This document shows, piece after piece, positions 566-50,528 of a stretch of 64,000 bases of DNA. Positions within the stretch are counted from its first letter, which is position 1. Every line of letters starts with the position of its first letter. Below the pieces are notes generated by a model, which saw nothing but the letters and a program-made list of their open reading frames with translations, made no database searches and was not told where the DNA came from. Source of the DNA: Candidatus Oxydemutatoraceae bacterium (GTDB lineage: Bacteria > Pseudomonadota > Gammaproteobacteria > Poriferisulfidales > Oxydemutatoraceae); assembly GCA_965237985.1 (NCBI GenBank), contig OZ250161.1:104078-168077 (forward strand), in the 5' to 3' direction. The position numbers and the translations under genes were made by a program.

Positions 566-971
566 GTGGCTGCGGATCAATATAAATCAGTTTTAGTCCG
601 CCTTCTTTTTCTATCTCCTCGTGCAGAACCCCACTTTTCAAACTGGATGAACAAGTTTGTTGTCGCCCCAAATGAGCTTGTTTGTCCAACCAGCAATTTG
701 CCTGCTTCTATCATCAAAATCAAAAAGCATTTGTTGGGCTTGCTTTTTGGTATCTTGGGTATTTTCCGCCCTTGGCTCATCTACCAACCGCAATTGTTTG
801 AAAGGGTAAGACAACATTTGCCACTTCACAGATTTTTCCATTCCATACCAGTTCAACCTCTTTTTTATCTGCGAAAAGTAAAAAACGAAATTTTTCCGGA
901 AGTGGTTTTCCAGATTCAAGATATTTGATAATAGCCCTTACTTCCTTTTTAGTTAGATTAACTTTATCCAT
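566..971 (-). pseudogene. Remnant of an N6/N4 DNA methyltransferase (type III Mod or type IIG-like N-terminus), broken by a frameshift
   Basis: ORF 777..971 (KEVELVWNGK...LPFQ) and ORF 638..919 (NKLIWGDNKLV) are consecutive methyltransferase N-terminal motifs in different frames. No catalytic or target-recognition part follows. Confidence 0.4.
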
Positions 972-1093: not shown

Positions 1094-1185
1094 TGGCGGA
1101 GAGAGAGGGATTCGAACCCTCGACACGGAATTCCCCGTATACACGCTTTCCAGGCGTGCGCCTTAGACCGCTCGGCCATCTCTCC
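1094..1185 (-). tRNA. tRNA-Ser (anticodon GGA), class II with long variable arm, CCA encoded
   Basis: The reverse complement GGAGAGATGGCCGAGCGGTCTAAGGCGCACGCCTGGAAAGCGTG...GGTTCGAATCCCTCTCTCTCCGCCA folds as a cloverleaf. The anticodon loop CTGGAAA gives anticodon GGA. Confidence 0.9.
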
Positions 1186-1783
1186 AGAAACCCTTCTGTT
1201 TTTTAGTCCAGGTCGGCGGTCGCCGAGTGAAATCATTCTCGACTTGCGCCCTGCACAACGCACAGCACTGGCGACGGCTTCCGGCACACCCAACAACTGC
1301 CAGTCTTGCCGTGGTCAGGATGGGCTATGGAACAGAAGCCACTATAATTGTAGCAATCTGTCCATGCATTTTCCAAGCAGTGTTGCGGGTAGGCAATACA
1401 ATCCCATTTGGAGAAAAAGCTGGGTTTTCGCTGTGCCGTTGGAAGATTTTCGTGATTCGAGGTTCGTCCGTACTTTGAGACAGGTGTGTATGGATAACGC
1501 GGTTGCGCGTCATGTCAAAATCGGTGTTTGGTTATATCCTTGGGGATGCTCTGCTAGGTGCAGCTTAACTGGAGGGATTCCACTTTGCAAGGGGATGAAA
1601 GGGGTTGTAGTAACGGTATGTGTGGCTGCTTTTGGCACCCCGGAATTCTGATTTGTTGCATTCTGGGTAAAAAAGTTGGTAAAACCAGCTTAAGATTTTT
1701 GAGAAGTATCCAGAAATTTATTAGAAGTTTATTGGTAGTTTGTGAGAACTCCTGTTATTGTAGAATAAGCATCAGGAGTGTTT

Positions 1784-2851
1784 ATGTTTATCCCGAAATT
1801 TCAAATCAGCCCAAAACTGAGCAAAGCTCTTATGGAAATTGAGGCGTGCCGACAGGCTGTCGCCTACTTGTCCGTTACGGTGACTTTGTTGGACAGTTTA
1901 CGCAAAAGCGCCCGGCTTGTTTCCACTCATTATTCAACTCAGATTGAAGGCAATCGCCTGACACAAGAACAGGTTCAGGAAGTGGTTTTACAGGGCGGCA
2001 CGTTCCCCAACCGGGAGCGAGACGAGCAAGAGGTTCGCAATTATTACCGCGCTCTTGATTACGTGGACACGCTTCTGGCCTCCCCCGGCGAGTTGACGGA
2101 GGCACACGTCCAGACCCTGCACGGGCTGGTCATGAACGGCAAGAACAAGCCTACCCCATACCGCGACGGACAAAATGTCATTCGCGATAGCGCCTCCGGC
2201 GGTATCGTTTACATGCCGCCCGAGGCAAAAGACGTGCTGGAATTAATGACCGAACTGGTAGCGTGGATAAAAAGCCAACGCACAACGAACAAACTCCCGG
2301 TTCCGATCATGGCCGGGCTTGTCCATTACCAGTTCGCGACTGTCCACCCTTATTATGACGGCAATGGCAGAACGGCGCGGCTGCTGACAAACCTTCTTCT
2401 CCATAAGGCGGGATACGGCCTCAAGGGCATCTATTCGCTTGAAGAATACTATGCGCGGAACCTTGGGGTATACTATGAAGCCTTGAGCGTTGGCCCGTCT
2501 CACAACTACTACACGGGCCGTGTAGAGGCCGACCTGTCCGGCTGGAACGAATATTTTTGCCTTGGCATGGCGGATGCATTTTCAACGGTTCGTGCCAAGG
2601 CTGCAGAGGCTGCAAAAAGGTCACGCCCGGATCAGACAGAGCAACTGCGCAGGCTGGATGCCAGACAGCGGCAAATCCTGATACTATTTGAAACGGACGC
2701 ATATGTTACCACAAAGCAAATCGCCGAACACCTCGGCATCCATCGCCGCACGGCTCTTAATCTTTGCAATCAATGGCTCAAGGACGGTTTTTTCATTCAA
2801 TATGGCGAGGCAAGGAAAAGCCGAAAATATGGGCTGGCAAGCGAAGACTGA
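1784..2851 (+). CDS. Fic family protein (AMPylation-type toxin or regulator) with C-terminal winged HTH
   Basis: Fic motif HPYYDGNGRTARLL. AGGAG lies 6 nt upstream of ATG 1784. The ORF-track start at 1778 is a GTG two codons earlier. Confidence 0.85.
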   Translation: MFIPKFQISPKLSKALMEIEACRQAVAYLSVTVTLLDSLRKSARLVSTHYSTQIEGNRLTQEQVQEVVLQGGTFPNRERDEQEVRNYYRALDYVDTLLASPGELTEAHVQTLHGLVMNGKNKPTPYRDGQNVIRDSASGGIVYMPPEAKDVLELMTELVAWIKSQRTTNKLPVPIMAGLVHYQFATVHPYYDGNGRTARLLTNLLLHKAGYGLKGIYSLEEYYARNLGVYYEALSVGPSHNYYTGRVEADLSGWNEYFCLGMADAFSTVRAKAAEAAKRSRPDQTEQLRRLDARQRQILILFETDAYVTTKQIAEHLGIHRRTALNLCNQWLKDGFFIQYGEARKSRKYGLASED

Positions 2852-2865
2852 CAATATTTAGGAAA

Positions 2866-3604
2866 GGGTCATGACAAGTTAAGCGGCTCTTTTCTGAATA
2901 TTCCAAGCAAAATCTTGTAAAGATTTTGCTTGCGATTGTTGAATCTAAATTCACATTCTTTAAGATGTAAATTGAATGTACTTTTGTCCATCCCTTTAAA
3001 CTTTACCAACCTAGTTTTTGCATAACCCCAAAATGACTCTATGCCATTAATATGAGAATTTCCTCTGGCGAATTCATTCTCACCATGATGAACTCTAAAG
3101 TGCTTCTTATAACCAAAATCTACTAAACCATTATACCCACGCCAGCCATCAGAATGAACAACACTATCTATGCTTGTTTTACCTCTAATTATCTTGGTTA
3201 AAGTCGCTGCAGTGCAATCTGGAACAATCTCAGTATAAACTTTATCACCGCGTTTTAATAAACCAAATACTTTGGTTTTACCTTTGGCGCCACGACCACG
3301 CACACCTTTGACTCTTTTTGCCCCAAAGTAAGATTCATCAACTTCAATCTGTCCCACTAATAGGGCAGATTGGTTGGTTGAATCTCTGGCAACCCGCTTG
3401 CGAATTGCCTTTAAATATTGATTAATAGTTTGTCTACTTAACTTTGTTAATTATTGGATTTGAACGGCGTTCAAATCCAAAGAAAAATAGCGAATAATTT
3501 CTCTAAATTTATGCTCAGAAATTCTTGAACGAATTACATATTTGTTTTTCATTGTCATAACAATACTTATCATGTTTTTAAACATGCTTAATTTGTCATG
3601 ACCC
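2866..3604. mobile_element. IS1595-family insertion sequence (ISXO2/IS1016-like, about 739 bp) with 19-bp terminal inverted repeats GGGTCATGACAA(G/A)TTAAGC
   Basis: Inverted repeats at 2866-2884 and 3586-3604. The element encodes a DDE_Tnp_IS1595-type transposase split across two frames. Confidence 0.7.
2869..3357 (-). CDS. IS1595-family transposase, catalytic DDE portion
   Basis: 162-aa ORF with ISXO2-like transposase motifs (HSDGWRGY, NGIESFW). The N-terminal HTH part (MTMKNKYVIRSRISEHKF...) lies in another frame at 3451..3558. Confidence 0.7.
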   Translation of the reverse strand: MGQIEVDESYFGAKRVKGVRGRGAKGKTKVFGLLKRGDKVYTEIVPDCTAATLTKIIRGKTSIDSVVHSDGWRGYNGLVDFGYKKHFRVHHGENEFARGNSHINGIESFWGYAKTRLVKFKGMDKSTFNLHLKECEFRFNNRKQNLYKILLGIFRKEPLNLS

Positions 3605-3623
3605 TACTTTTTTACTAATTTTT

Positions 3624-5525
3624 TCAATACGCACTATTCGCTCCCGCCAGCACGGCCCTTGCCCAACAGGAAACGGAACACCCGGCGGCTTTTGCTGCTA
3701 CGGCGTATTGGTCGGCCTGTGCCTGGGTGAGGCGAAATCCGATGAGTGTTGTACTCCCTCTGCTCCGGGCGTCCGGCGGCGGGATGTTTTCGGGCGGGTT
3801 GTTCAGTATGTCTCTGGCCCACATCGCCACGCTCTGGCCGCTGGCTTTCGCCCGGACAGTGGCGGCGGTGTGAACGGCATTACTCACACGCAGAGCAAAC
3901 ATTATGCTCTTTAGAGGTTGCTTGACCGTGGCAGGCTTTGCTTTGACTTTGGGCCGTTGAACTTCCTTTATTTTCGACTCGGCTGGGGCTGTTGCTGGTG
4001 CCGGGGAAGGTGCGCCACCAAGCAACACCGCCCTTGCCCAGTACGTTATGGAATGCCCTGCCGCTTCTGCGGCAAGGGCGTATTCTTCGGCTTGGGCAGG
4101 GGTAATGCGAAAGCCGATCATTTTCCGGCGATTTTCACGTCTGGTGTTTACCGGGGGAAGCTGCTCCGGCGGGAAGTTCAGCATCGCGCTGGCCCAAATG
4201 CCGACACTCAGCCCCTCGGCCTCCGCCTTGGCGGCGGCGGCGTATTCTTCCTCGCTGACACGTATGGAAAACATACTGCGTGTGCTTGGTTCATAGGGGT
4301 CTTTTGGCGGTTTTAAGTTATGGCTATTTTGCCTCGGTGTTGCCGATAGCTTTTTCTTCGGCTTGCTTTTACCTTGCAGCAAATCGCGCAAGGTCGCGCC
4401 GATCCGCTCGGCGGCGACTTCTGTGGCTTTATCCGATACGTGGGTATAACGCAAGGTCATGCTGGTTTTGCGATGCCCCAACAGTTTTGAGACCATTGGG
4501 ATTGTTACCCCCTTGATTACGGCGTGGCTGGCGAAGGTATGGCGCAGGTCATGGACTCGCACGTCCTCAATTCCCGCCCTTTCGCGCATGTCTCGCCAAT
4601 ACTGATCTATGTTGTTTCGGGGCAGTTTCGGGTCTTTAATCCACGGAAACACCCACCGGGTGCCGTTTCTTGGTTGGCGTTCCAGAATGCTGATGGCCTT
4701 CTTGCTCAAATAAACTTCTCGCTGCCCGGTTTTGGTGTCGGGTATCTTGATAATGCCGTCACGAATCATCGACCATTCAAGCAAGGTGATCTCCCGATGA
4801 CGGCACCCGGTCAAAAGGATCAAGCGGACAATATCCGCGCCCTGCCTGTAGTCCCGGCTTTCCTTTTCGGCATTTTTCAGAACCTTTGATAACCGGGTGA
4901 TTTCCTCTGACGACAGAAAGCGGTTAAGAATTTTCTTCGGGTTCTTGCGAATACCCTTGGCCGGGTTTTCGCTCAAATGGCCGCAAACGACTGCAAACTC
5001 CAGAATGGACAGAAGAACCTCCAGTGCGCGATTAGCCCCGCCGGGATAGGTCTTGCTGTAGATGTCGAACCACTCGGCAACCCCCGGCTTGTTGATCTCG
5101 TCCAGATACATCTTGCCGAACTCTGGCAACAAGCGGGAATTGATATAGCTACGGGTCGATCTCTGGCCCGTGGGTTTGAGCAAGACAAATTTCTGCTCAT
5201 GCCACGCACCAAAAATAAACTCGTCAAAGCGTGGCGCGTTCGATATGCGCTCGGCCTGTGTCGGCTCTCCCATCTGCAAGCTGGTCAGCGTATCAACGCA
5301 AGCCTGACGGGCCTCGGCCTCCGACATAACCGGGAACTTTCCCAGCGTTACCTTGTGGATTTTATCGCGTACCAATCCATGCAGGATAAAAGCCTTGTAC
5401 CCGGTCGGCCTGACGCGAAGGCCACACCCGAAAAGCTGATTGTCCCATGCAACGTATTCCTTGCCCTCAACGGCAAGCTGGCGCACACGACTGTCCGTGA
5501 GTTTTAATTTCAATTTGCTTTTCAT
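3624..5525 (-). CDS. int: P4-type tyrosine integrase (DUF4102 arm-binding N-domain plus catalytic core) fused to four C-terminal ribbon-helix-helix (MobC/NikA-like) repeats
   Basis: The catalytic region carries HDLRHTFAS...LGH...Y. The C-terminal 230 aa hold four copies of a motif of the form h-x-[FL]R[VIL][ST]-x7-A-x-A-x-G-x-S[VI]-x2-W-x-R-x2-[LM]. Confidence 0.85.
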   Translation of the reverse strand: MKSKLKLKLTDSRVRQLAVEGKEYVAWDNQLFGCGLRVRPTGYKAFILHGLVRDKIHKVTLGKFPVMSEAEARQACVDTLTSLQMGEPTQAERISNAPRFDEFIFGAWHEQKFVLLKPTGQRSTRSYINSRLLPEFGKMYLDEINKPGVAEWFDIYSKTYPGGANRALEVLLSILEFAVVCGHLSENPAKGIRKNPKKILNRFLSSEEITRLSKVLKNAEKESRDYRQGADIVRLILLTGCRHREITLLEWSMIRDGIIKIPDTKTGQREVYLSKKAISILERQPRNGTRWVFPWIKDPKLPRNNIDQYWRDMRERAGIEDVRVHDLRHTFASHAVIKGVTIPMVSKLLGHRKTSMTLRYTHVSDKATEVAAERIGATLRDLLQGKSKPKKKLSATPRQNSHNLKPPKDPYEPSTRSMFSIRVSEEEYAAAAKAEAEGLSVGIWASAMLNFPPEQLPPVNTRRENRRKMIGFRITPAQAEEYALAAEAAGHSITYWARAVLLGGAPSPAPATAPAESKIKEVQRPKVKAKPATVKQPLKSIMFALRVSNAVHTAATVRAKASGQSVAMWARDILNNPPENIPPPDARSRGSTTLIGFRLTQAQADQYAVAAKAAGCSVSCWARAVLAGANSAY

Positions 5526-6671
5526 GATGACAGCACTCCCCCGATGGCAGAGGACACGGTCCGCGCCGTGTATTGGATATCGTCGTTGGCAAGGTGGGAA
5601 TATTTCAGGGTGATTTCCGGGTCGGCATGTCCCAGCAATCTCCCGATGGTGATAATATGCTCGCCATGCCCAAGGGCCACGCTGGCGTAAGTGTGGCGCA
5701 AGTCATGCATTCGAACGTTTGCCAGCCCCGCTTGTTCGCGGATGGCGCGCCAATTGTAGTCGATATAACTTTGAGTGATGGTTCCCGCTTTCCCGCGTAA
5801 GGCCGGGAAAACATACAGGGACGTTCTGGGGATTGCTTCCAGAACGTCACGGGCGGCGGATGAGAGGAAAATGGTTTTCGCACCCGTCTTGCTGTCGGGC
5901 AAATACAGGTTGCCGTGCCTGCAGCTTGGCCACTGCAACCCCATCGCTTCCCCTTTCCGGCAACCCGTCAAAATAACAAATTTCAGAAAGGACACCACAA
6001 GCGGTGATGTTGCGCGATTGCTTTCCAAAACGCCCCCAAGCGTTGCCAGTTCATCCGCCGACAAGAACCGCTCCTTTGCCGCCACCTTATAACGGGGGGT
6101 GCCTTTGCACGGGTTGGAATTATCAGGCCGATAACCGTAAATTTCGGCTTGCTGCATCAGGACGGAAAGAATAGGCAGGGTTCGGTTTGCCATGCCGGGC
6201 CGGTTGCCAAGCGAGGCGAACCAGCGGGTAATATGGCTCTTGTCGCTCTCGCCAATTTTCATCCCTTTGAAAAATGGCAAAATGTGGTGATCGTAGGTGT
6301 TGCGGCTGGAACGAAACATGGAATCTTTCCAGTGCCGTCTGTAACGGTCAAAGAATATCTCGCCGACTTCCTCAAACAACGCCTGTTTAAGCTCCGGCGG
6401 TCTGGGGGTCGCTCTGCTTTGCAATACTCCGCAAGGCCAGTGCGCGTGCCTTCGCCTCCGTCAACTTTGTAGTTGAACCAAGGCTATTCCACTTTCGCCG
6501 CCCCCTCACCTGAGCCTGAACGAAGTACGTTTTGCCCCCGCTAGGCGAAACCCGAACGCCAAACCCGGTAAGCTCACCATCGCGAACACTGTAAAATTTT
6601 TCTTGGGGTTTAAGGCTATCAATCAGTTTTTGGGTTGATTTTTGCTTCTCCATGAGTTTTTCCTTTTGCAT
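5522..6671 (-). pseudogene. Second P4-type integrase, split by a frameshift between the arm-binding domain ORF (6387..6671) and the catalytic ORF (5522..6424)
   Basis: ORF 6387..6671 is a DUF4102-like N-domain (YSVRDGELTGFGVRVSPSGGKTYF). ORF 5522..6424 is the catalytic core (HDLRHTYAS). They overlap by 38 nt in different frames near a C5 run. Confidence 0.6.
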
Positions 6672-6965
6672 TTAATCCATGTTTGAATTTGCTGCAAAGT
6701 GGGAAAACAAGAGCTCACCCATTGCGCAACGCTACACAGAACGCAAGGTATAACCCTTTGATTTTGATGAATTTAACGCGCCACTATTTTTACTTTTAAC
6801 TACGAAGTAGTGACGGGTGTGGGCTTTATGAAGCCGGTGCCGGAGATTCCAGATTTCCAACGCACCCGGCTGACGTTATCCGTTTTCATTTCCCTGACAG
6901 TCCTCCCTGTTTCGGGTTGCTGATGTTTTTTATCCGGGGCTTATTAAGCTAAACTGCACACCTAC

Positions 6966-7670: not shown

Positions 7671-8132
7671 ATGCCTCGTGTCCCAAAACGTCCTCTGATT
7701 TCGGAAATCAATGTCGTGCCCTACATCGACGTTATGCTGGTGTTGCTGGTTATTTTCATGATTACGGTTCCTTTGATTCAGCAGGGGGTAGAAATCAACT
7801 TGCCTGAAGTAGAGGGGAAGCCGGTTACCGATGCGGATGGCGCGCCGGTTACTGATCCGTTAATTGTTACGGTGGAACGCGATGGGAAACTTTGGGTCAA
7901 TCGCCAGGGTGTTGGGGAAACGGCCATGGACTTGGAGGGGATTGCGGACGCTTTGCAGCAGCTGTTGCCGGAAAATCATTACGAGGTCTATTTGCGGGCG
8001 GATGAACATGCCAGATATGGTGATGTGGTGAAGGTTCTGGTCACCATTCAGGAACTCTTTCCCGAGGGCGTGGCAGGAGGACAGACTGTCGGCCTGATAA
8101 CAGCCCCGCCGCCTGATGAGGAAAACTTTTGA
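7671..8132 (+). CDS. tolR: Tol-Pal system protein TolR
   Basis: ExbD/TolR family. N-terminus MPRVPKRPLISEINVVPYIDVMLVLLVIFMIT. Confidence 0.9.
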   Translation: MPRVPKRPLISEINVVPYIDVMLVLLVIFMITVPLIQQGVEINLPEVEGKPVTDADGAPVTDPLIVTVERDGKLWVNRQGVGETAMDLEGIADALQQLLPENHYEVYLRADEHARYGDVVKVLVTIQELFPEGVAGGQTVGLITAPPPDEENF

Positions 8133-9132
8133 AGTGAACCTGGAAAGGCTTTGGCTCCGGGGTGGTGAAACGCGGAAAAACAAGTCTTTATTTTCTCTTG
8201 TCCTTGTTGCATCCTTGGCATTGCATGCATTGGTCATTGGTGTCCTTGCCATGGTTATTACCGCCCCGGGGACAAGTGCCACTCCAACCCGTGCTCCCCT
8301 GTCGGGAGTCGTTCAGGCAACGGCGGTCAGTGCGGCGCAGGTTGAACGCTGGCGCGAGCGGAAAGTAGCAGAAAAACGCAGGTTGCAAGAGGAGAAAATG
8401 ACTGAACAGCGGGAGAAAGAACGGGTTGCCCGCAAGCAGCGGGAGGCACAGGAAGCAAAGCGTGCCGCAAAAAGAGAAGCGGATATCATGGTGCGCAAGC
8501 AGGAAGTGATGGAGGCCAAAAGGAGATCAGAAGCGGCTGAGGCGCGTAGAAAGGCGGAAGAAGCCAAGGCGAAAGCGGCGGCTGAGGCGCGTAGAAAGGC
8601 GGAAGAGGCCAAGGCGAAAGCGGCGGCTGAGGTACGTAGAAAGGCGGAAGAGGCCAAGGCGAAAGCGGCGGCTGAGGTACGTAGAAAGGCGGAAGAAGCC
8701 AAAGTGAAAGCGGCGGCTGAGGTACGTAGAAAGGCGGAAGAAGCCAAGGTGAAAGCGGCGGCTGAGGTGCGCAGAAAGGCGGAAGAAGCCAAGGCGAAAG
8801 CGGCGGTAGAGGCACAGCTTCGTGCGGAAGCCGAGGCGCGCCGCAGCCGTGAATTGGTGTTGCTGGTCAACAAATATGTACGCGATATCGAAAATAGGAT
8901 TCGGTCAGTGTGGAGCGTCCCGCCCGGTGGCATTGGTCATGGTGACTGCACCATTCGTTTGGAGCAGGACAGAAGCGGCATGGTAAGAAGCGTGCAGATC
9001 CAAAGCTGCGAGGGCAACCAGTTATATCGCCAATCGCTTGAAGAGGCAGTGTTGAAAGCAGCTCCTTTGCCACTGCCGGGTGCTGCGGAGATCTTTGATG
9101 CGGAGGTCGAAGTCACATTCAGACTTCAGTAG
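8116..9132 (+). CDS. tolA: Tol-Pal system protein TolA with a 6x 15-aa Ala/Lys/Glu-rich tandem repeat
   Basis: N-terminal TM anchor, long AEARRKAEEAKAKAA repeat helix, C-terminal TolA domain. Position between tolR and tolB. Confidence 0.8.
   Translation: MRKTFEVNLERLWLRGGETRKNKSLFSLVLVASLALHALVIGVLAMVITAPGTSATPTRAPLSGVVQATAVSAAQVERWRERKVAEKRRLQEEKMTEQREKERVARKQREAQEAKRAAKREADIMVRKQEVMEAKRRSEAAEARRKAEEAKAKAAAEARRKAEEAKAKAAAEVRRKAEEAKAKAAAEVRRKAEEAKVKAAAEVRRKAEEAKVKAAAEVRRKAEEAKAKAAVEAQLRAEAEARRSRELVLLVNKYVRDIENRIRSVWSVPPGGIGHGDCTIRLEQDRSGMVRSVQIQSCEGNQLYRQSLEEAVLKAAPLPLPGAAEIFDAEVEVTFRLQ
8536..8805 (+). repeat. 45-bp tandem repeat x6 inside tolA (encodes AE[AV]RRKAEEAK[AV]KAA)
   Basis: Direct read of the sequence. 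Period is 45 bp with a few point differences. Confidence 0.85.
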
Positions 9133-14570: not shown

Positions 14571-16568
14571 CTTTGAAAACAGGAGCATGAAGCCATGAGG
14601 CCTCCTGCACGTTTGTTGCTTGAAGACGGCACTGTTTTTTGTGGTTGCCAAGTGGGTGGGGACCAACGAGGGGATGGCGGTCGGCGAAGTGGTGTTCAAC
14701 ACGGCGATGACTGGTTACCGGGGGATATTGACCGCTCGTCTTGCCGACAGCAGATTATTACCTTGACCTGCCCGCATGTCGGCAACGTCGGGACAAACGG
14801 TGAAGATTCTGAATCGTCCAATTGAAAACAGGAGCATGAAGCCATGAGGCCTCCTGCACGTTTGTTGCTTGAAGACGGCACTGTCTTTTGTGGTCGCCAG
14901 GTGGGGACCGACGAGGGGATGCGGTCGGCGAAGTGGTGTTCAACATGGCGATGACTGGTTACCAGGAGATATTGACCGATCCGTCTTACCGACAGCAGAT
15001 TATTACCTTGACCTGCCCGCATGTCGGCAACGTCGGGACAAACGGTGAAGATTCTGAATCGTCCAATTGAAAACAGGAGCATGAAGCCATGAGGCCTCCT
15101 GCACGTTTGTTGCTTGAAGACGGCACTGTCTTTTGTGGTCGCCAAGTGGGGACCGACGAGGGGATGGCGGTCGGCGAAGTGGTGTTCAACACGGCGATGA
15201 CTGGTTACCGGGGGATATTGACCGATCCGTCTTGCCGACAGCAGATTATTACCTTGACCTGCCCGTATGTCGGAAACGTCGGGACAAACGGTGAAGATTC
15301 TGAATCGTCCAATTGAAAACAGGAGCATGAAGCCATGAGGCCTCCTGCACGTTTGTTGCTTGAAGACGGCACTGTCTTTTGTGGTCGCCAAGTGGGGACC
15401 GACGAGGGGATGCGGTCGGCAAGTGGTGTTCAACACGGCGATGACTGGTTACCGGGGGATATTGACCGATCCGTCTTACCGGCAGCAGATTATTACCTTG
15501 ACCTGCCCGCATGTCGGCAACGTCGGGACAAACGGTGAAGATTCTGAATCGTCCAATTGAAAACAGGAGCATGAAGCCATGAGGCCTCCTGCACGTTTGT
15601 TGCTTGAAGACGGCACTGTCTTTTGTGATCGCCAAGTGGGTGGGGACCAACGAGGGGACGGCGGTCGGCGAAGTGGTGTTCAACACGGCGATGACTGGTT
15701 ACCGGGGGATATTGACCGATCCGTCTTGCCGACAGCAGATTATTACCTTGACCTGCCCGTATGTCGGCAACGTCGGGACAAACGGTGAAGATTCTGAATC
15801 GTCCAATTGAAAACAGGAGCATGAAGCCATGAGGCCTCCTGCACGTTTGTTGCTTGAAGACGGCACTGTCTTTTGTGGTCGCCAAGTGGGGACCGACGAG
15901 GGGATGGCGGTCGGCGAAGTGGTGTTCAACATGGCGATGACTGGTTACCGGGGGATATTGACCGATCCGTCTTACCGGCAGCAGATTATTACCTTGACCT
16001 GCCCGCATGTCGGCAACGTCGGGACAAACGGTGAAGATTCTGAATCGTCCAATTGAAAACAGGAGCATGAAGCCATGAGGCCTCCTGCACGTTTGTTGCT
16101 TGAAGACGGCACTGTCTTTTGTGGTCGCCAGGTGGGGACCGACGAGGGGATGCGGTCGGCGAAGTGGTGTTCAACATGGCGATGACTGGTTACCAGGAGA
16201 TATTGACCGATCCGTCTTACCGACAGCAGATTATTACCTTGACCTGCCCGCATGTCGGCAACGTCGGGACAAACGGTGAAGATTCTGAATCGTCCAACTG
16301 AAAACAGGAGCATGAAGCCATGAGGCCTCCTGCACGTTTGTTGCTTGAAGACGGCACTGTTTTTTGTGGTTGCCAAGTGGGTGGGGACCAACGAGGGGAT
16401 GGCGGTCGGCGAAGTGGTGTTCAACACGGCGATGACTGGTTACCGGGGGATATTGACCGCTCGTCTTGCCGACAGCAGATTATTACCTTGACCTGCCCGC
16501 ATGTCGGCAACGTCGGGACAAACGGTGAAGATTCTGAATCGTCCAATTGAAAACAGGAGCATGAAGCC
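14571..16568 (+). repeat. Tandem array of eight partial copies of the carA 5' end (about 246 bp each; 5'-UTR with SD plus first 74 codons), head-to-tail directly upstream of intact carA
   Basis: ATGs at 14595, 14844, 15089, 15335, 15579, 15829, 16079 and 16320 each follow GAAAACAGGAGCATGAAGCC. Each copy ends ...GAAGATTCTGAATCGTCCAATTGA. The ninth ATG at 16569 is the intact gene. Confidence 0.9.
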
Positions 16569-17702
16569 ATGAGGCCTCCTGCACGTTTGTTGCTTGAAGA
16601 CGGCACTGTCTTTTGTGGTCGCCAAGTGGGGGCCGAGGGGATGGCGGTCGGCGAAGTGGTGTTCAACACGGCGATGACTGGTTACCAGGAGATATTGACC
16701 GATCCGTCTTACCGACAGCAGATTATTACCTTGACCTGCCCGCATGTCGGCAACGTTGGGACAAACGGTGAAGATTCTGAATCATCCACAGTATTTGCTT
16801 CTGGTCTGGTGTTGCGGGATGTTCCGCTCATGGAACAGAACTGGCGTAGCGAATGTTCTCTTCCTGACTTTTTGAAACTGCGGGGAGTGGTCGCGATTTG
16901 TGATGTGGATACCCGGCGCCTGACGCGACATTTACGTGATCAGGGTGCGAAAAACGGGGTTTTGTACAGCACAGACTATAGCGATGAAGAAGCAAAGAAA
17001 GCTCTGTTGGCATTTCGTGGACTGTCCGGCACTGATCTGGCAGCGGAAGTCAGCACCTCCCACGCCTACGACTGGGATGAAAGTGTGTGGTGCCCTGGAG
17101 GCGGGTTTGCCACCAGGAACGACGGTGATTTCTACGTGGTGGCATATGATTTTGGAATCAAGCGGACGATTTTGAGAATCCTGACCAGCCTGAATTGCAA
17201 AGTGCGTGTTGTGCCGGCTAAAACCCCGGTGGGTGAGGTTTTGTCCTTGCGACCTGATGGTGTGTTTTTGTCCAATGGCCCGGGAGATCCGGAGCCATGT
17301 TTTTACGCGATCGAGTCAGTGCGTAAGATCCTGGATGCAGGCATCCCTTTGTTCGGGATATGTTTGGGGCATCAGCTGCTGTCTTTGGCGTGTGGTGCGC
17401 GCACTGTGAAGATGAAATTTGGCCATCATGGTGCCAACCATCCGGTTGAAGAACTGGCGACCGGAAAAGTCTTGATTACTTCCCAGAACCACGGTTTTTG
17501 TGTTGACGAGAGTTTTTTGCCTTCCTGTTTGTCCGCGACCCACCGCTCCCTTTTTGACCAGAGCCTGCAGGGGGTTCATCACACCGGGAAACCGGCCTTC
17601 GGGTTCCAGGGACACCCCGAAGCCAGCCCCGGCCCGCACGATCTGGTACCGTTTTTCTCCCACTTCATGGATTTGATGAAAGATTGTGCCAAAAAGAACT
17701 GA
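16569..17702 (+). CDS. carA: Carbamoyl-phosphate synthase small subunit CarA
   Basis: N-terminus [21 protein letters not shown]...[20 protein letters not shown]. GATase triad region GICLGHQ. It overlaps the carB start. Confidence 0.9.
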
Positions 17703-21758: not shown

Positions 21759-23630
21759 TCACGATTTCCCCTTTGGTGATTCTACTTCTTTCCCTTCGCA
21801 AAAGTGCACGAATCCTTTAACGTTGCCCACGACCCACTCAAACTCTTCCTTCGTAAGTTCTTGGCCGTCTTGACTGAATTTTTTCCTGTATACAGGTTCA
21901 CTGGCTTTTTTGTGCATTAGAGTGAGAAGGTTTTTACCTTCTCGGTTGTACATGGGTATTCCCGTTTTCCGGTTTACAGGCAATTGTTTGATGACCCTGT
22001 CGACACAATGCATTAGTTTTGCACTGGGTACGCGCCTGCAGCAGCTTTCGGCAACATCTGGGATGCCCAATATGCCGGTTTCTTTAAAATCAGTCGACCA
22101 CTTTGCATTTGTTGATGATTTCTCCATGTGCTCCAGATCAAACAGTGTGTCTCTGTTTGGTGCACGTCCATTTTTCAGTGTGAGGTAGCTAAGACAGTGC
22201 TTTGTATTTGCACTCACTTTCGTGCCCTCAATATACCCTGCCAATCTATACCCTTCCAATCTTTCGCCAATTCTTTTTTCCAAGGTGGCTGTCAGTTGCG
22301 CATGTAAGCGATTCTGTCCTGATGAAGAGATTCCGGGCGCAAAAGCGAGCGGTTCCTCTGCTGTCCTGATATCAAAAAATTCTGTGACATGATAAGCCTG
22401 CATTTTATGAGTTGCCCAGTAATCTCTACGTTGAATCCATGTTTCGTTATCAGAAATTGTCCGTGTCTTCCCGGACACCGCAACAAGTGTTTTCGTTATT
22501 TCTATTTTGGGGCGTTCTGCCCCTACACTTTTCCCTATTATTGCTGCGTCGGTTTTGCCGGCATCGGGCTTCGTTGCGCTCGTGTCTGGTGTATTTTTTC
22601 CAGTTATAGGCCGATTTCTGCCGCTTCCGGGATCTTTTGCCACTTTGATACGACTACTCTCATCTTGTGGCGTAGGCCCACTTTTGGTGGTACTGGATTT
22701 ACTGGATTGTGGTGTTCCTGCTCTGCTCGTGTTCGGCGTTTCTTTTTTTTTGTTCCTTGTAGGCTGACTGTTGCCTTTTTTCGCAGGGGGCTTCAGATTT
22801 TGTTTCGGGTTTTTTGTTAGGGCATTGCTGGCTGCCGTTCCTCGTGTTAAGTCCCTCCGGGTTACTCGTTTTTTTTCTGTCACCGGCTGACTGTTGCCGG
22901 GATCTTGTGTCGTACCTGTGAGGTGACTTTGCTCTTGTGTTGCAACCGTAGATGTCAGGTTGGTGTGTTCCTCAGTGGGTTTTTTGTCTGTCACCGGCTG
23001 ACTGTTGCCGGGATCTTGTGTCGTACCTGTGAGGTGACTTTGCTCTTGTGTTGCAACCGTAGATGTCAGGTTGGTGTGTTCCTCAGTGGGTTTTTTGTCT
23101 GTCACCGGCTGACTGTTGCCGGGATCTTGTGTCGTACCTGTGAGGTGACTTTGCTCTTGTGTTGCAGCCGTAGATGTCAGCTTGGTGTGTTCCTCAGTGG
23201 ATTCTTTGTCTGTTGCCGGGTCTTGAAAGGTGCTGGGCGTGATGGCTTCAGTGTTAGTTTTGGGAAGTTCAGTGCCCGGGGTGTTCTGGTTGCCTCCCGT
23301 ATCGGGTGTGGCTCTGCTGCTGGCAAGTCTTTGCGATTCCTCATGGATGTAACGGTTAAACTCCCTCCTGTTCTGCAAGGTTTTTTCTTGTTCTGTGGAG
23401 ATCTTGAATTCCTCATTTTCACTACCAAGAGCTGCAGCCAGTATATTCCTGCGGCTCTGCAGCTCTTGCTTGCGATAATTTTCACTGAACTTGTAGCGAA
23501 AAATATGCACTACCCAGCCTGAGAATGAGTTCTTGAGAACACATTGCCCGTTACCATTGTCTGTTTGTACCCCCAGTCTGCCCAGCTGACTTCTGGCAGC
23601 TCTCTGCAAGATTCCATCACCAATTTCCAT
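21759..23630 (-). CDS. Hypothetical protein, 623 aa, with central Thr/Gln/Ser-rich low-complexity region (3 x 37-aa repeats) and a conserved-looking C-terminal domain
   Basis: Long open frame. Repeat TDKKPTEEHTNLTSTVATQEQSHLTGTTQDPGNSQPV x3. No recognisable family. Confidence 0.55.
   Translation of the reverse strand: MEIGDGILQRAARSQLGRLGVQTDNGNGQCVLKNSFSGWVVHIFRYKFSENYRKQELQSRRNILAAALGSENEEFKISTEQEKTLQNRREFNRYIHEESQRLASSRATPDTGGNQNTPGTELPKTNTEAITPSTFQDPATDKESTEEHTKLTSTAATQEQSHLTGTTQDPGNSQPVTDKKPTEEHTNLTSTVATQEQSHLTGTTQDPGNSQPVTDKKPTEEHTNLTSTVATQEQSHLTGTTQDPGNSQPVTEKKRVTRRDLTRGTAASNALTKNPKQNLKPPAKKGNSQPTRNKKKETPNTSRAGTPQSSKSSTTKSGPTPQDESSRIKVAKDPGSGRNRPITGKNTPDTSATKPDAGKTDAAIIGKSVGAERPKIEITKTLVAVSGKTRTISDNETWIQRRDYWATHKMQAYHVTEFFDIRTAEEPLAFAPGISSSGQNRLHAQLTATLEKRIGERLEGYRLAGYIEGTKVSANTKHCLSYLTLKNGRAPNRDTLFDLEHMEKSSTNAKWSTDFKETGILGIPDVAESCCRRVPSAKLMHCVDRVIKQLPVNRKTGIPMYNREGKNLLTLMHKKASEPVYRKKFSQDGQELTKEEFEWVVGNVKGFVHFCEGKEVESPKGKS
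22880..23215. repeat. 111-bp tandem repeat x3 inside the 21759..23630 ORF
   Basis: Direct read of the sequence. Period is about 110-111 bp. Confidence 0.8.
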
Positions 23631-24367: not shown

Positions 24368-24541
24368 TGGGGTTTCAACGGCCCCGGCATCATTTCTTGA
24401 CCCCTCACTGCCTTTGTGCTCTGGTGATGGTTTTGTGTTTCCTCAGTCAATGGGAGAATAGACGGAAACAAAGTGCGACCACACGTTCACTTGTAAATGC
24501 AACATCCAGCAGGTAGCACTGGCATTCGGACATCGGCAGAT

Positions 24542-25234
24542 GGGGCTGATTTGTGGCTACGGTCAGTGGTTTCCGTCCTGTTTCAGTCGTCCGGATTTTT
24601 TAGTTTTTTTGCAGTGCGTAAATGGTTGCGAGTGCCTGGCGAGGAGACAGTTCGTTTGGGTCCAGTTTTTTCAGAGCTTTCAATGCCGGGTGGTGGTGGT
24701 CAAATGCGAGTTTCGGTTGCTGCGGGGAGGGTTTTTGGACACACTGCATGGCTTCCAGCTCCTCCAGCTTCTGGGGCTGATTTGTGGCTACGGTCAGTGG
24801 TTTCCGTCCTGTTTCAGTCGTCCGGATTTTTTAGTTTTTTTGCAGTGCGTAAATGGTTGCGAGTGCCTGGCGAGGAGACAGTTCGTTTGGGTCCAGTTTT
24901 TTCAGAGCTTTCAATGCCGGGTGGTGGTGGTCAAATGCGAGTTTCGGTTGCTGCGGGGAGGGTTTTTGGACACACTGCATGGCTTCCAGCTCCTCCAGCT
25001 TCTGGGGCTGATCTGTGGCTACGGTCAGTGGTTTCCGTCCTGTTTCAGTCGTCCGGATTTTTTAGTTTTTTTTGCAGTGCGTAAATGGTTGCGAGTGCCT
25101 GGCGAGGAGACAGTTCGTTTGGGTCCAGTTTTTTCAGAGCTTTCAATGCCGGGTGGTGGTGGTCAAATGCGAGTTTCGGTTGCTGCGGGGAGGGTTTTTG
25201 TTTTTGGGCACACTGCATGGCTTCCAGCTCCTCC
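24542..25234. repeat. 231-bp unit x3 comprising the last ~63 codons of mutS plus ~42 bp of 3' flank; two extra copies lie downstream of the mutS stop
   Basis: Units start at 24542, 24773 and 25004. The third overlaps the genuine mutS 3' end (stop 25045). Confidence 0.85.
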
Positions 25235-27630
25235 AGCTTCGCAAGCGCCTGTTTCAGGGTGGCTTCCGGAAGACCTGCCAGGCGGGCGACCTGGATGCCG
25301 TGGCTGCGGCTGGTGCCTCCGACTTTTACTTTGTGCAAAAACACGACTTCTCCGGCGTGCTCTATTGCGTCCATGTGGACATTTTGCACTTGTGGGTATT
25401 TTTCGCAGAGCGTTGTCAATTCGAAATAGTGTGTGGCAAACAATGTCAGTGAGTGGTTCCGGCTTGCCAGTTCTGCCGCACATGCCCAGGCCAGGCTGAG
25501 TCCGTCGAAGGTACTTGTTCCCCTTCCGATTTCATCCATCAGTACCAGGCTGTCCGGCCCGGCGTTATTCAAAATGTTGGCTGATTCCGTCATTTCCACC
25601 ATGAATGTAGAACGTCCCGAGGCGATGTCATCTGCCGCGCCAATCCTCGTGTAAATGCAATCCAGGGGGCCGATGGTGGCTTCTGTAGCAGGCACCCAGG
25701 CGCCGATATGTGCCAGTAAGGCAATTTGAGCTGTTTGGCGCATGTAGGTGGATTTTCCGCCCATATTCGGTCCGGTGATTACCAGCATGCGTTGTTTCTC
25801 ATCCAGATCGAGGTCGTTTTCCACGAAAATGTTTTCCTGGCTGAGTTCTACGACGGGATGTCGTCCGCCCTTGATGTGTATCCCCCGGGAGGCAGCCAGT
25901 GTCGGTCGGCAGTACTTTCGTTCTTCTGCGCATTTGGCAAGGGTGGTAATGACATCTGTCGCAGCCAGAGCGGCTGATGTTGCCTGCAGGCGACTGATGA
26001 AGGGGCGGAAATAAAGCAGGATTTCCCGGAACAGTTTTTTCTCTTTGGCAAGTGCTTGATCGCGGGCGGCAAGTACACGGCCTTCCAGAGATTTCAATTC
26101 GGCAATGGAGTAACGTTCTGAGTGTTTTAGCGTTTGCATTCTTCGGTAGTCCTCCGGAGCTTTCTCAGCAACTGCGCGTGGCATCTCTATGTAATAGCCG
26201 TGCACCCGGTTGTAAGCGACGCGCAAATTATTGACTCCTGTCCTGCGCCGTTCCCGATTTTCAATTTCTATCAAATGTCCGGAAACGTTTTTATGCAGTC
26301 CGCGAAAATAGTCCAATTCCGGGTCGTATTTGGAGCGAATGACTCCGCCATCACGTATGGTGGCAGGGGGAGTGTCCACAATTGCCTGTGCAAGATGTTG
26401 TGCGAGTTCCGGTTCGGGGTGCAGGTTGGCATCAAGATTTTTGGCCAGCGGGCTTGTCAGAGTGCCCAGCGTAGTTTTCAAAACCGGCACCAGCTCCAGA
26501 GTTTCCCGAATGCCGTTCAGATCTCGGGGTTTTGCTGTTTCCAGAACCACGCGTGCCAGCATGCGTTCCAGGTCATTACTGCGTCCCAGTATGGCGCGTA
26601 GATTGTGCAGGGTTTCCTTATGTACCAGTTCGCCGATCAGTTCCTGGCGTTTTTGCAGGGCTTCGCGTTGCCGTAAGGGACTGGCAAACCAGCGCCGCAA
26701 ACAGCGCGCTCCCATGCTGGTAACGGTGTGATCGTGAATGCCAACGAGCGTTCGCTTGTGATCGCCTGAAGTCGATTTTTCTATTTCCAGGCAACGGCGA
26801 CTTGTGGCGCTGAGCTGCACAAAATCTTCATCGTTTTCCACGATGAGGCTACGCAAATGTGGCAACTCTGATTTCCTGGTGTCCAGCACGTATTGCAAAA
26901 GCGCCCCGGCAGCTGCAACAGCCGTGTCTTTGTTTATGCAACCGAATCCTTCCAGACCCAGCACCTCAAGCTGCCGGCATAATAGCCTGCGTGCATTTCT
27001 TATCAGAAAAACTGATGCCGGCAAGCTTTGCGGCTGGTGCTTTTCCAAAGTGAAAGTGCGGTTTTCACTGACCAGAAGTTCAGCCGGATGCAGGCGGTCT
27101 ATTTCATCATCCAGTGCGGCGTGGCTGGCAGTCTGGCGGATAGTCAAACGACCGGAACTGAGTTCAAGCGTGGCGATGCCGAATACCGGCTGTTTTGTTT
27201 TTTCATCGCTATGTACGGCCATGACCAGATTGTCTCGTTGCTCATCCAGCAGTGTGTCTTCAACGACGGTTCCCGGAGTGACCACGCGCACCACTTTGCG
27301 CTCCACAGGCCCGCGGCCTTGTACCGGGTCGCCGACCTGGTCGCAGATTGCCACAGTCTTTCCCAGGCGAACCAGTTTGGCGAGATAGCTTTCCACCGCA
27401 TGTACTGGCACACCAGCCATGGGCACTTTCTTATTGCCGTAACGGCCGCGGGAAGTCAAAGTAATATCAAGGAGCTTTGCTGCTTTTTCGGCATCGTGAA
27501 AAAACAGTTCATAAAAATCCCCCATATGATAGAAAAGCAGGGTGTCCGGGTATTCAGACTTTATGCGCAGGTACTGCTGCATCACGGGGGTGTGTTCGCT
27601 GATCATGAGTGTGCTGCTCTCCAGGGGCAT
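25045..27630 (-). CDS. mutS: DNA mismatch repair protein MutS
   Basis: 861 aa. N-terminus [28 protein letters not shown]. Walker [10 protein letters not shown]. Confidence 0.95.
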
Positions 27631-39848: not shown

Positions 39849-40529
39849 TTATTTCGCTTTGTCCGTGGCAGACTGGATCATGACTTTCATTGCGTTTATG
39901 GTTTTCTGGTAATCGGAAGAACCAAAAATTGCTGAACCGGCGACGAAAGTGTCAGCTCCTGCACTTTTGGCGGCGGCAACGTTTTCGGCATTGACTCCCC
40001 CGTCGACCTGTAGGCGGATTTGTCGTCCGCTGGCATCAATGCGGCAGCGTGCCTGTTCCAGTTTCTGGTACGCCAGCGGGAGGAATGTTTGTCCACCAAA
40101 GCCTGGATTGACTGACATCACTAAAATCATGTCTACTTTGTCGAGGACGTAATCCAGGCAGGAAAGTCCGCTCGCCGGGTTGAAAGCCAAGCCGTTTTTA
40201 CAACCACAATTACGGATCAGTTGGAGGCTTCGGTCCACGTGGTCGGTTGCTTCCGGGTGGAAGCTGATGTAATCGGCGCCGGCTTCAGCAAAGGCGGTGA
40301 TTAAACCGTCCACCGGTCGGGTCATGAGATGCACATCGATCGGGGCGTTGATGCCGTAATTCCGCAGGGCGCTGCAGACCATGGGGCCAAAACTCAAGTT
40401 GGGAACATAATGATTGTCCATGACATCAAAATGCACCATGTCGGCACCGGCATCGAGAACAGCAGACACTTCTTCTCCGAGTCGGGCAAAGTCCGCGGCG
40501 AGTATGGAGGGACAGATTTGGTCTTTCAT
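39849..40529 (-). CDS. rpe: Ribulose-phosphate 3-epimerase Rpe
   Basis: [21 protein letters not shown]...[17 protein letters not shown]. 226 aa. Confidence 0.9.
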
Positions 40530-49180: not shown

Positions 49181-49944
49181 GAAGTCCATCGGCAACTTTG
49201 GCGGATCTGAGCAATGAACGATTGTTTGAGAGACTCAGCGAACCGGTGAAGTCTGAAATGGTTATCCCGAAGCTGAAGGATCGGAATTATTGGGCGGAGG
49301 GTACACGTGATGAGGAAACGCGGGGAAAGATGGTTGATAGCATTGTCGATGAAGTGACTGAAAAGTTTGTTGCTGCTTTGGGAGATTTTCAAGCTCTAAG
49401 AGTTACTGCGAATGAAAAACTGGGATTATTAAATTAAGAATGAATATTGATGAACGAGACCCGCCTTCTGATGTGAAACTCCAAGCCGTGGCACTGGAGA
49501 CCGTCGTAAAAGAAGCTGCTGGCAACGACCAGCTGAACGAGGCCGTAACGATGATAATTAACCATCGTCTTAGGGAACCGGAACAAGACAATCCTGAAGA
49601 GAAAAATTTCGCTATCTAGGCAGCACCACAATACACTACGCCAGGCATGCAGCAAGCTGATGAAGTTCGTGCTACCCACCAAGGACGGAATGATGAGCAA
49701 TTATCTTTTCAAGAAATGTCTGCCAAAGGGTTTTTAAAAAGGCTCAGTGAGCATGTAGAAGTCCATTATGTTACTCCTGCACTTTAGGGGGTTGGTTATG
49801 GTTCGGAAAGGGAACGGATGAAAAAAGTAATGACGGTGAACGCAACTGTCTGGTTTGTCGTGAATATAAAGAATCGTCAGATTGCTGACATCCAGGCGCG
49901 AGCACAGGAAAGCTACAATGCAAAAGCCCGTTTCTACGATGCAA

Positions 49945-50528
49945 TATGAGAATTTCCTCTGGCGAATTCATTCTCACCATGATGAACTCTAAAGTGCTTC
50001 TTATAACCAAAATCTACTAAACCATTATACCCACGCCAGCCATCAGAATGAATAACACTATCTATACTTGTTTTACCTCTAATTATCTTGGTTAAAGTCG
50101 CTGCAGTGCAATCCGGAACAATCTCAGTATAAACTTTATCACCGCGTTTTAATAAACCAAATACTTTGGTTTTACCTTTGGCGCCACGACCACGCACACC
50201 TTTGACTCTTTTTGCCCCAAAGTAAGATTCATCAACTTCAATCTGTCCCACTACAATCTGTCCCACTACAATCTGTCCCACTAATAGGGCAGATTAGTTG
50301 GTTGAATCTCTGGCAACCTGCTTGCGAATTGCCTTTAAATATTGATTAATAGTTTGTCTACTTAACTTTGTTAATTATTGGATTTGAACGGCGTTCAAAT
50401 CCAAAGAAAAATAGCGAATAATTTCTCTAAATTTATGCTCAGGAATTCTTGAACGAATTACATATTTGTTTTTCATTGTCATAACAATACTTATCATGTT
50501 TTTAAACATGCTTAACTTGTCATGACCC
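49945..50528. mobile_element. 5'-truncated second copy of the IS1016-like element (missing ~185 bp of one end) carrying an internal 15-bp x3 repeat
   Basis: Colinear and near-identical to 3048-3604, ending in the same terminal repeat (GCTTAACTTGTCATGACCC). CAATCTGTCCCACTA is present three times at 50239-50283 versus once in copy 1. Confidence 0.75.

Follow-up and report, generated by a model that had tools for sequence, protein, structure and literature searches.

A tyrosine integrase with a tail of paired ribbon-helix-helix motifs, a candidate built-in accessory module of a two-integrase genomic island

The window analysed here, a stretch of 64,000 nucleotides (nt) of contig OZ250161.1 from a Candidatus Oxydemutatoraceae bacterium (GCA_965237985.1), encodes Int2-RHH4, a tyrosine integrase (Int2) that runs on in the same reading frame into a tail of 254 amino acids (aa) holding four ribbon-helix-helix (RHH) motifs. 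The motifs are arranged as two copies of a two-motif unit, A-B, the first of which is modelled as a single-chain RHH pseudo-dimer resembling the relaxosome protein TraY. Every part is of a known kind, namely a P4/IntSXT integrase and NikA-like RHH motifs in the form of TraY-like single-chain units, and their combination is rare and apparently undescribed in the literature searched. The reading favoured here, with a probability of roughly 0.5, is that the tail acts as a tethered, sequence-specific DNA-binding module and is thereby a built-in accessory factor of Int2, the second enzyme of a two-integrase (Int1 and Int2) module. We infer that the tail binds DNA at target sites and affects recombination or transcription from there.

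The open reading frame (ORF) and the domains of its integrase part are the following:

3624..5525, minus strand: Int2-RHH4, a single ORF of 633 aa with an ATG start and the stop codon at 3624-3626 (ORF list and Pfam)
5250..5501, minus strand: N-terminal arm-type DNA-binding domain Arm-DNA-bind_3/DUF4102, aa 9-92 (Pfam PF13356)
4944..5210, minus strand: core-binding domain Phage_int_M / SAM-like, aa 106-194 (Pfam)
4431..4919, minus strand: catalytic domain Phage_integrase, aa 203-365 (Pfam PF00589)

The original prediction had placed an integrase with fused RHH repeats at 3624-4330; this region is real and makes up the C-terminal ~235 aa of the ORF, with the strand corrected to minus. The prediction had also described the preceding part as a complete P4-type integrase, and the arm-binding, core-binding and catalytic domains were indeed all found, together with the catalytic residues. 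In Pfam the arm-binding domain scores 28.9 bits with PF13356 (cut-off 27, E=1.3e-6), the core-binding region is matched by both PF22022 and PF14659, and the catalytic domain reaches 92.8 bits with PF00589 (E=2.7e-26). As read from the translation, the catalytic set is present in full, with R in LTGCRHRE, K in DTKTGQREV, HxxR in HDLRHT, H in LLGH and Y in LRYTHV. Judged by sequence, aa 1-379 constitute a complete P4/IntSXT-type tyrosine integrase, which is predicted to be catalytically competent. Most of the best 120 homologues listed are ordinary integrases of ~380-400 aa that are 42-48% identical to Int2. The closest tail-less integrases among the matches listed (P0004-P0006, 60-62% identity, 380-386 aa) end soon past the catalytic domain, and the tail is therefore regarded as a gain of this sub-lineage.

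Beyond the integrase, the tail alternates between linkers and A-B units:

4275..4388, minus strand: Linker 1, aa ~380-417, K/P/S/T-rich (GKSKPKKKLSATPRQNSHNLKPPKDPYEPSTRS), with a low predicted local distance difference test (pLDDT) in the AlphaFold2 single-sequence model
4179..4274, minus strand: RHH motif A1, aa 418-449, beginning MFSIRV
4122-4178, minus strand: intra-unit connector after A1, NFPPEQLPPVNTRRENRRK
4017..4121, minus strand: RHH motif B1, aa 469-503, beginning MIGFRI; A1 and B1 form unit 1
3903..4016, minus strand: Linker 2 between the units, aa 504-541, P/A/K-rich, pLDDT <50 in the single-sequence model
3804..3902, minus strand: RHH motif A2, aa 542-574, beginning MFALRV
3747-3803, minus strand: connector after A2, NNPPENIPPPDARSRGSTT
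3642..3746, minus strand: RHH motif B2, aa 594-628, beginning LIGFRL; A2 and B2 form unit 2

The tail alone matches the NikA-like family of Pfam (PF21983) in three stretches with 67.6 bits (E=1.1e-18, cut-off 27), as well as a HicB-type RHH model (E=9e-9), and gives weak matches in NCBIfam to the relaxosome proteins MobA, MbpA and TraJ. When the motifs are scanned singly against the NikA-like model, B1 scores 26.9 bits, B2 24.7, A1 15.0 and A2 14.6 (cut-off 27), each of the four aligning to positions 1-43 of the model, its RHH part, so that the similarity of the tail to MobC/NikA-type RHH proteins, as originally proposed, is borne out. A2 additionally matches antitoxin-type RHH models, i.e. 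HicB RHH with 20.6 bits and FitA-like. The four repeat peptides named in the original prediction were all recovered exactly, but they are not four equal repeats; instead the tail is (A-B)x2, with unit boundaries at 4017-4274 and 3642-3902. Type A motifs (aa 418-449 and 542-574) lead into a conserved connector, N-P-P-E-x-[LI]-P-P, type B motifs (aa 469-503 and 594-628) terminate in ..AAGxSxxxWARAVL[LA]G, and both inside the protein and across all relatives A resembles A, and B resembles B, more closely. Unit 2 is 51% identical to unit 1, and at the DNA level the tail contains a direct repeat of 96 nt that is 74% identical and spaced by 375 nt, which equals 125 codons. Linker 1 is, according to the model, probably flexible.

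For the whole tail without an alignment, AlphaFold2 returned a pLDDT of 45, which is informative for secondary structure only, with strand-helix-helix occurring four times. Unit 1, modelled with a 16-sequence alignment, reached a pLDDT of 81.8 and a predicted template modelling score (pTM) of 0.69, and has the topology strand-helix-helix-connector-strand-helix-helix with just two strands, at residues 6-12 and 57-63 of the unit. Since no other strands exist in this model, the A and B strands must pair together. Unit 1 (A1 and B1) is modelled as a single-chain RHH pseudo-dimer, in which A and B would pair within the chain. Foldseek aligns the model full-length to single-chain RHH proteins: the eleven top matches in the Protein Data Bank (PDB) are all chains of the F-plasmid relaxosome, identified as TraY (9f0x_E: TMq 0.70, probability 1.00, 99 aligned columns), and the next match is a ‘permuted single-chain Arc’. 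TraY of F is a monomer that contains the whole RHH-dimer fold in one polypeptide, and it binds as a train of three molecules, bending the DNA (10.1101/2024.12.19.629322). Sequence homology to TraY was not detected when the 16-sequence A-B profile was compared by hhalign (probability 0.1%, 15 aligned columns; the TraY sequence used matched PDB 9f0x_E at E=4.8e-85), and a PDB sequence search with the A-B profile gave noise only. The likeness of the A-B unit to TraY is at the level of architecture only.

The in-frame fusion is present in four further loci at 51-75% identity. Two of the fused proteins carry one A-B unit, namely P0003 (locus L001, GCA_024279135.1; 490 aa, 51% identity) and P0002 (locus L003; 489 aa, 56% identity). 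In the third locus (L005, protein P0123) the C-terminal part of Int2 continues in frame into one unit, and in the fourth (L004) an intact Int2 leads into two units, i.e. four RHH motifs as in the window, before the contig ends; L008 carries the matching end. All fused loci have the linker start ..AAERIG.TL..LL.G.. in common, tail-less ordinary members terminate ~10-20 aa past ..AAERIG.., and the G, W, R and PPE positions are kept in every motif across the fused loci. Unit number varies among near relatives: L004 and L005, whose DNA is 82% identical, have two units and one, respectively. Broken fusions account for the three closest stand-alone A-B proteins: P0122 (L002, on a contig with 3x coverage) is cut off by a frameshift in the linker from an integrase 99.8% identical to that of the window, P0190 (L094) by an in-frame stop at the Q position of ..TLQGLLG, and P0121 (L093) by an insertion sequence (IS) transposase gene inserted just upstream of the surviving linker. 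The original prediction had suggested to look for a separate downstream RHH gene in homologues, and these separate forms are secondary breaks. It had also considered that the fusion arose by loss of a stop codon; because the in-frame fusion recurs at 51-75% identity and the stand-alone forms are broken fusions, neither a recent event of this kind nor an artefact is supported. The comparison of these loci indicates that the fusion is real and ancestral within its clade.

Between the window and L002 the DNA is 99.8% identical from tolQ through Int1 and Int2 to codon ~383 (blastn). The breakpoint lies at ~4376, at the start of Linker 1, and beyond it the tails and the cargo are wholly different. 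In these sequences the tail behaves as an exchangeable cassette, for which the linker would be the boundary.

An integrase with an RHH array of its own had been called unusual, and this is reflected in the searches: an exhaustive search of 1.84 billion representative proteins with the A-B profile gave 69 matches at E<=1e-3, three of which, the broken fusions P0122, P0190 and P0121, reach E<=1e-10. The remaining matches are remote and comprise two-RHH proteins of 93-107 aa, longer RHH arrays and two-RHH proteins with a C-terminal extension. Among them, P0183 combines two RHH motifs with a C-terminal MobC segment (PF05713, 25.0 bits, cut-off 23.2), the two-RHH protein P0134 shows a weak, sub-cut-off match to MobC_2 (18.4 bits, cut-off 27.5), and P0148, a two-RHH protein with a C-terminal extension, matches neither MobC nor MobC_2. 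One remote two-RHH protein of 93 aa (P0170) is encoded directly upstream of a 491-aa protein (L098, 868-2739; L099, 25-1896), in which the sole recognisable domain is a C-terminal NikA-like RHH. In JGI metagenomes five loci with the A-B profile were found. There was no match to the profile in 185,579 species-representative genomes or in the viral contigs of IMG/VR, and none to the tail by tblastn in 72,556 plasmids (PLSDB) and 50,697 phages. A word-indexed protein search with the tail alone, in which alanine-rich words swamped the candidates, gave no match at E<=1e-3, and the same type of search with a seven-unit profile gave three matches only. The literature searched gave no description of an RHH domain fused to an integrase or of a directionality factor of the RHH type, and the reference classification of tyrosine recombinases lists extra features for several subgroups, but no C-terminal RHH domain (PMC8138268).

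The genomic setting of Int2 is that of an integrative module. Int2 is always preceded by the gene of another DUF4102 integrase, Int1, whose stop codon overlaps the start of Int2; this applies to loci with a tail (L001, L004, L005) as well as to tail-less ones (L009, L011, L012). In the window the relevant features are:

5522..6671, minus strand: Int1, the upstream partner integrase with arm-binding, SAM-like and catalytic domains; the stop of Int1 and the start of Int2 overlap in ATGA
6814..6822, minus strand: core CCACACC[C/T]G, putative island end/att core, ~125-150 bp upstream of Int1
2865..3607, minus strand: IS1595/IS1016-like insertion sequence (Pfam DDE_Tnp_IS1595), terminal inverted repeats GGGTCATGACAA

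Int1 of the window is split into ORFs of 94 aa and 300 aa by a frameshift at a C5 run (6395-6405). The identical frameshift occurs in the independent metagenome contig L002, and it is therefore taken to be a real mutation, so that Int1 is probably an inactive pseudogene in this lineage; intact orthologues of 375-382 aa lie upstream of Int2 in L001, L004, L005, L009 and L011. The core is kept upstream of Int1 in six loci, which are the window, L001 (at 8702), L004 (673), L005 (5388), L009 (311 and 5516) and L011 (3690). A flank shared by L004 and L001 with 89% identity stops at the core, an island shared by L004 and L005 starts there, and the tail-less island of L009, which is 5.2 kb long and carries HigBA and BrnT as cargo, has at its two ends a 33-bp direct repeat (29/33) that includes the core. 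Since all of these boundaries meet at the core, it is interpreted as the island end, and this conserved end together with the direct repeats of L009 indicates that the enzyme family is integrative. A second att copy or far island end was not found in the window, where only a 9-11-nt match at 1489 was seen. When an empty site was sought via TolQ, the best species representative was 57% identical, so that no close genome was available to delimit the island. The host-side flank before the core is GC-rich and stem-loop-rich in four of the six loci (window, L001, L004 and L009), matching no Rfam family upstream of Int1, and is AT-rich or unrelated in L005 and L011.

Cargo of the module consists of predicted defence or toxin-antitoxin genes: L001 carries BsuBI/PstI restriction-modification genes with Cas9 nearby, L011 and L012 carry SLFN_AlbA_2, methyltransferase and NYN genes, and the window and L093 carry a Fic gene. 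The called genes on either side of L001, L002, L003, L009, L011, L012 and L093 and the first 9 kb of the window showed no domain of a relaxase, coupling protein or type IV secretion system (T4SS), and no separate Xis-like gene was called in the tail-less island of L009. The IS1595/IS1016-like element begins 17 bp past the stop of Int2-RHH4, leaving the ORF not truncated. It is ~740 bp long and AT-rich, has an in-frame TAA in its transposase frame, and is 98-99% identical to a second copy at 49943-50528. The island in the window is decaying.

In the mechanism that we propose, Int2-RHH4 would act as the second integrase of the Int1 and Int2 module at one end of a small, decaying genomic island. 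The A and B motifs would pair in one chain to give the two-stranded beta-ribbon of an RHH ‘dimer’, which would enter the DNA's major groove, and two such units, carried on flexible linkers, could bind side by side at two sites and put a bend in the DNA, comparable to the trains of TraY at oriT or of Xis at attR. The tail would thus hold Int2 at island-specific sites beside the crossover region and promote the assembly, or bias the outcome, of the Int1/Int2 recombination complex, and it may also serve as an autorepressor of the int operon. The original prediction had likewise suggested that the repeats could give the integrase a built-in means of accessory DNA binding or directionality. Tyrosine integrases normally rely on separate DNA-bending proteins, such as Xis and other recombination directionality factors (RDFs), IHF and Fis, for the complex and its direction, and the known RDFs of these enzymes are proteins in their own right, mostly of the winged-helix or helix-turn-helix (HTH) kind. 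The tail would take the job that elsewhere belongs to such a separate small protein, be it Xis/RDF in phages and integrative and conjugative elements or GinD/TnpC in GInt and Tn554. The tethered-module reading is preferred because the context is integrative, transfer genes are absent nearby, the coupling is covalent and the tail co-varies with the cargo side.

Several known systems share features with this arrangement. Like TraY (PDB 9f0x chains E-G), the tail combines two RHH motifs that are modelled to fold as a pseudo-dimer in one polypeptide, and TraY units line up on adjacent DNA with bending; but TraY is a free 131-aa protein, encoded in the tra operon beside oriT and partnered by an HUH relaxase, whereas in the present case a tyrosine integrase carries one or two units by covalent linkage, with no transfer genes nearby. 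The NikA-like/MobC-type proteins (PF21983; R64 NikA, MbpA, MobA and RP4 TraJ) are the closest sequence family of the tail, but they are small proteins whose dimers comprise separate chains and whose genes adjoin a relaxase gene and oriT, whereas the tail lacks the C-terminal part of the NikA model, has its motifs paired within the chain according to the model, and has an integrase as partner. With the P4/IntSXT (DUF4102) island integrases, the N-terminal 380 aa of Int2 share the three-domain architecture and the catalytic residues; ordinary members are single genes, whereas Int2 has an RHH tail of 254 aa and always comes second in an overlapping pair. Xis and other RDFs (lambda Xis, Tn916 Xis, P4 Vis/AlpA) are by analogy similar in the proposed job, that of a DNA bender beside the crossover site which shapes the intasome, but in the five fused loci the RHH module is part of the integrase polypeptide, so that its dose is tied to that of the integrase. 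GInt (ginABCD), and likewise Tn554 with TnpC, have an operon of several integrases plus a small protein, putatively DNA-binding, on which excision and integration depend (PMC5385486). The layout of GInt is similar in that a multi-integrase operon stands at an island end, and its cargo starts right after the small-protein gene (PMC5385486). GInt differs in having three Xer/Cre-like integrases without DUF4102 and in its separate GinD, which is helix-loop-helix-like, not RHH; the module of the window has two DUF4102 integrase genes, not three, and no ginD-like ORF.

A number of observations weigh against the tethered module. No binding site or operator was found in the sequences, and the short repeats between the core and Int1 occur in tail-less loci as well. 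Tail-less relatives evidently work without the tail, which is not essential to the module, and several relatives have lost the fusion by mutation (the frameshift of L002, the stop of L094 and the IS of L093). With a frameshifted Int1 and an abutting IS, the island may be immobile and the tail perhaps not under selection for recombination. The closest named families, NikA, MobA, MbpA and TraJ, belong to the relaxosome and are not accessory factors of recombination. No more than 16 sequences underlie the AlphaFold2 model of the unit, and Foldseek gave E-values of modest strength (9e-3).

The alternative that survives best, although itself unlikely, is a pure transcription regulator, in which the RHH units would repress the int operon or neighbouring cargo such as a convergent Fic gene and have no role in recombination, so that the fusion would just tie the dosage of a repressor to that of Int2. 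RHH proteins are typically repressors, as exemplified by Arc, Mnt, CopG and antitoxins, and the match of A2 to the antitoxin-type HicB and FitA-like models fits this view. Just past the tail, a convergent gene for a Fic-domain protein with a C-terminal HTH is found both in the window (1778-2851, plus strand) and in L093 (573-1685, minus strand). The two Fic proteins are only 28% identical, however, and the neighbours at the other loci are unrelated and without Fic. Fic was accordingly rejected as a conserved partner of the tail, and the association may be coincidental. Furthermore, the region upstream of Int1 showed no operator-like palindrome that is confined to tail-bearing loci, and a repressor tied to a 380-aa enzyme would be an odd design, given that it could be produced separately.

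Less probable still is a mobilisation module, in which the tail would bind an oriT-like site of the island and, as a relaxosome accessory, recruit the relaxase of a helper, or in which the tyrosine-recombinase domain would itself nick DNA in the manner of the MOB_M family. The best families of the tail are relaxosome accessory proteins (NikA-like with 67.6 bits, and weakly MobA, MbpA and TraJ), its best fold match is TraY, and the remote profile matches include P0183 with its MobC segment and P0134 with its sub-cut-off MobC_2. Relaxases related to tyrosine recombinases do exist (MpsA, TcpM and MobK), and they are reported to be common in chromosomes and often mis-annotated as integrases (PMC6414798; 10.64898/2026.01.13.699239). 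The MOB_M systems (SGI1 MpsA and MpsB, pCW3 TcpM, pIGRK MobK) also resemble Int2-RHH4 in that, on a mobile island, a tyrosine-recombinase fold is used along with a small partner that binds DNA (PMC6414798), and a remote locus, L097, couples a stand-alone A-B RHH gene with an arm-less tyrosine-recombinase-like gene amid helicase, primase and SSB genes. By contrast, MpsB resembles the core-binding domain of an integrase and is not an RHH protein, whereas Int2 carries Arm-DNA-bind_3 as a full arm-binding domain and groups with ordinary integrases, which make up most of the best 120 homologues listed. In addition, islands that direct repeats delimit have tail-less orthologous modules at their ends, the flanks showed no oriT, relaxase or transfer gene, tblastn of the tail had no match in the 72,556 plasmids, and the hhalign comparison gave no homology to TraY.

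A hybrid ‘integrase-relaxosome’ factor ranks lower again: here the tail would mark an oriT-like site after excision, where the relaxase or T4SS of a helper plasmid could be recruited or MOB_M-type nicking could take place, so that excision of a defence island would be coupled to its conjugative hitch-hiking through one polypeptide. A relic or artefact, i.e. an ORF owed to read-through by accident, to faulty assembly or to the decay of a pseudogene whose tail has no selected function, is very improbable, since the signs of decay (the Int1 frameshift, the abutting IS with its nonsense-mutated transposase and a far island end that was not found) and the disruptions of the junction by frameshift, stop and IS in relatives are set against an unbroken 633-aa frame, an in-frame fusion that four further loci share at 51-75% identity and in which every motif keeps G, W, R and PPE, two units carried independently by two of the five fused genes, and DNA repeats that are 74% identical, yet in frame in both copies.

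In the locus L097 (5001-6301; ERZ28763718 ctg121192) the stand-alone A-B NikA-like gene overlaps the start of the arm-less tyrosine-recombinase-like gene, which encodes 335 aa, and the pair is surrounded by UvrD-helicase, D5_N primase and SSB genes. The pair could be an RHH accessory protein with a MOB_M-type relaxase, or an integrase with its RDF, and by analogy L097 may be seen as a remote parallel to the Int2-RHH fusion. Plasmid relatives of the L097 recombinase gave no clue to mobilisation.

If the tethered module is correct, an integrase with TraY-like single-chain RHH binders of its own would represent a compact, self-contained design, in which the binders come in one or two copies and are exchangeable between near-identical enzymes. 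Int2-RHH would then offer a simple system for the control of integration and excision by accessory DNA binding, and swapping of tails might re-target integrases. The two-integrase module joins the known vehicles of defence and toxin-antitoxin islands. The joining of relaxosome-type RHH motifs to a tyrosine recombinase also bears on the origin of the MOB_M relaxases, and the hybrid factor, if true, would be a direct evolutionary link from integrases to the relaxases derived from tyrosine recombinases.

A tRNA-Ser(GGA) gene lies at 1094-1185 (minus strand), ~600 bp from the Fic gene. It was ruled out as the integration target, its 5' end facing the island and the adjacent tRNA of L009 being oppositely oriented. 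Just past this tRNA, an ORF of 64 aa at 777-971 (minus strand), MDKVNLTKKEVRAIIKYLESGKPLPEKFRFLLF..., resembles the start of a truncated larger gene. Downstream of tolQ/tolR, a TolA-like ORF (8116-9132, plus strand) contains a 45-bp (15-aa) repeat, AEVRRKAEEAKAKAA, in about six copies at 8533-8806. By self-comparison, the window moreover contains tandem repeat arrays at 14573-16788, 40309-42975, 24541-25240 and 22868-23213, with periods of ~246, 240, 231 and 111 bp, respectively, and 88-98% identity among the copies.

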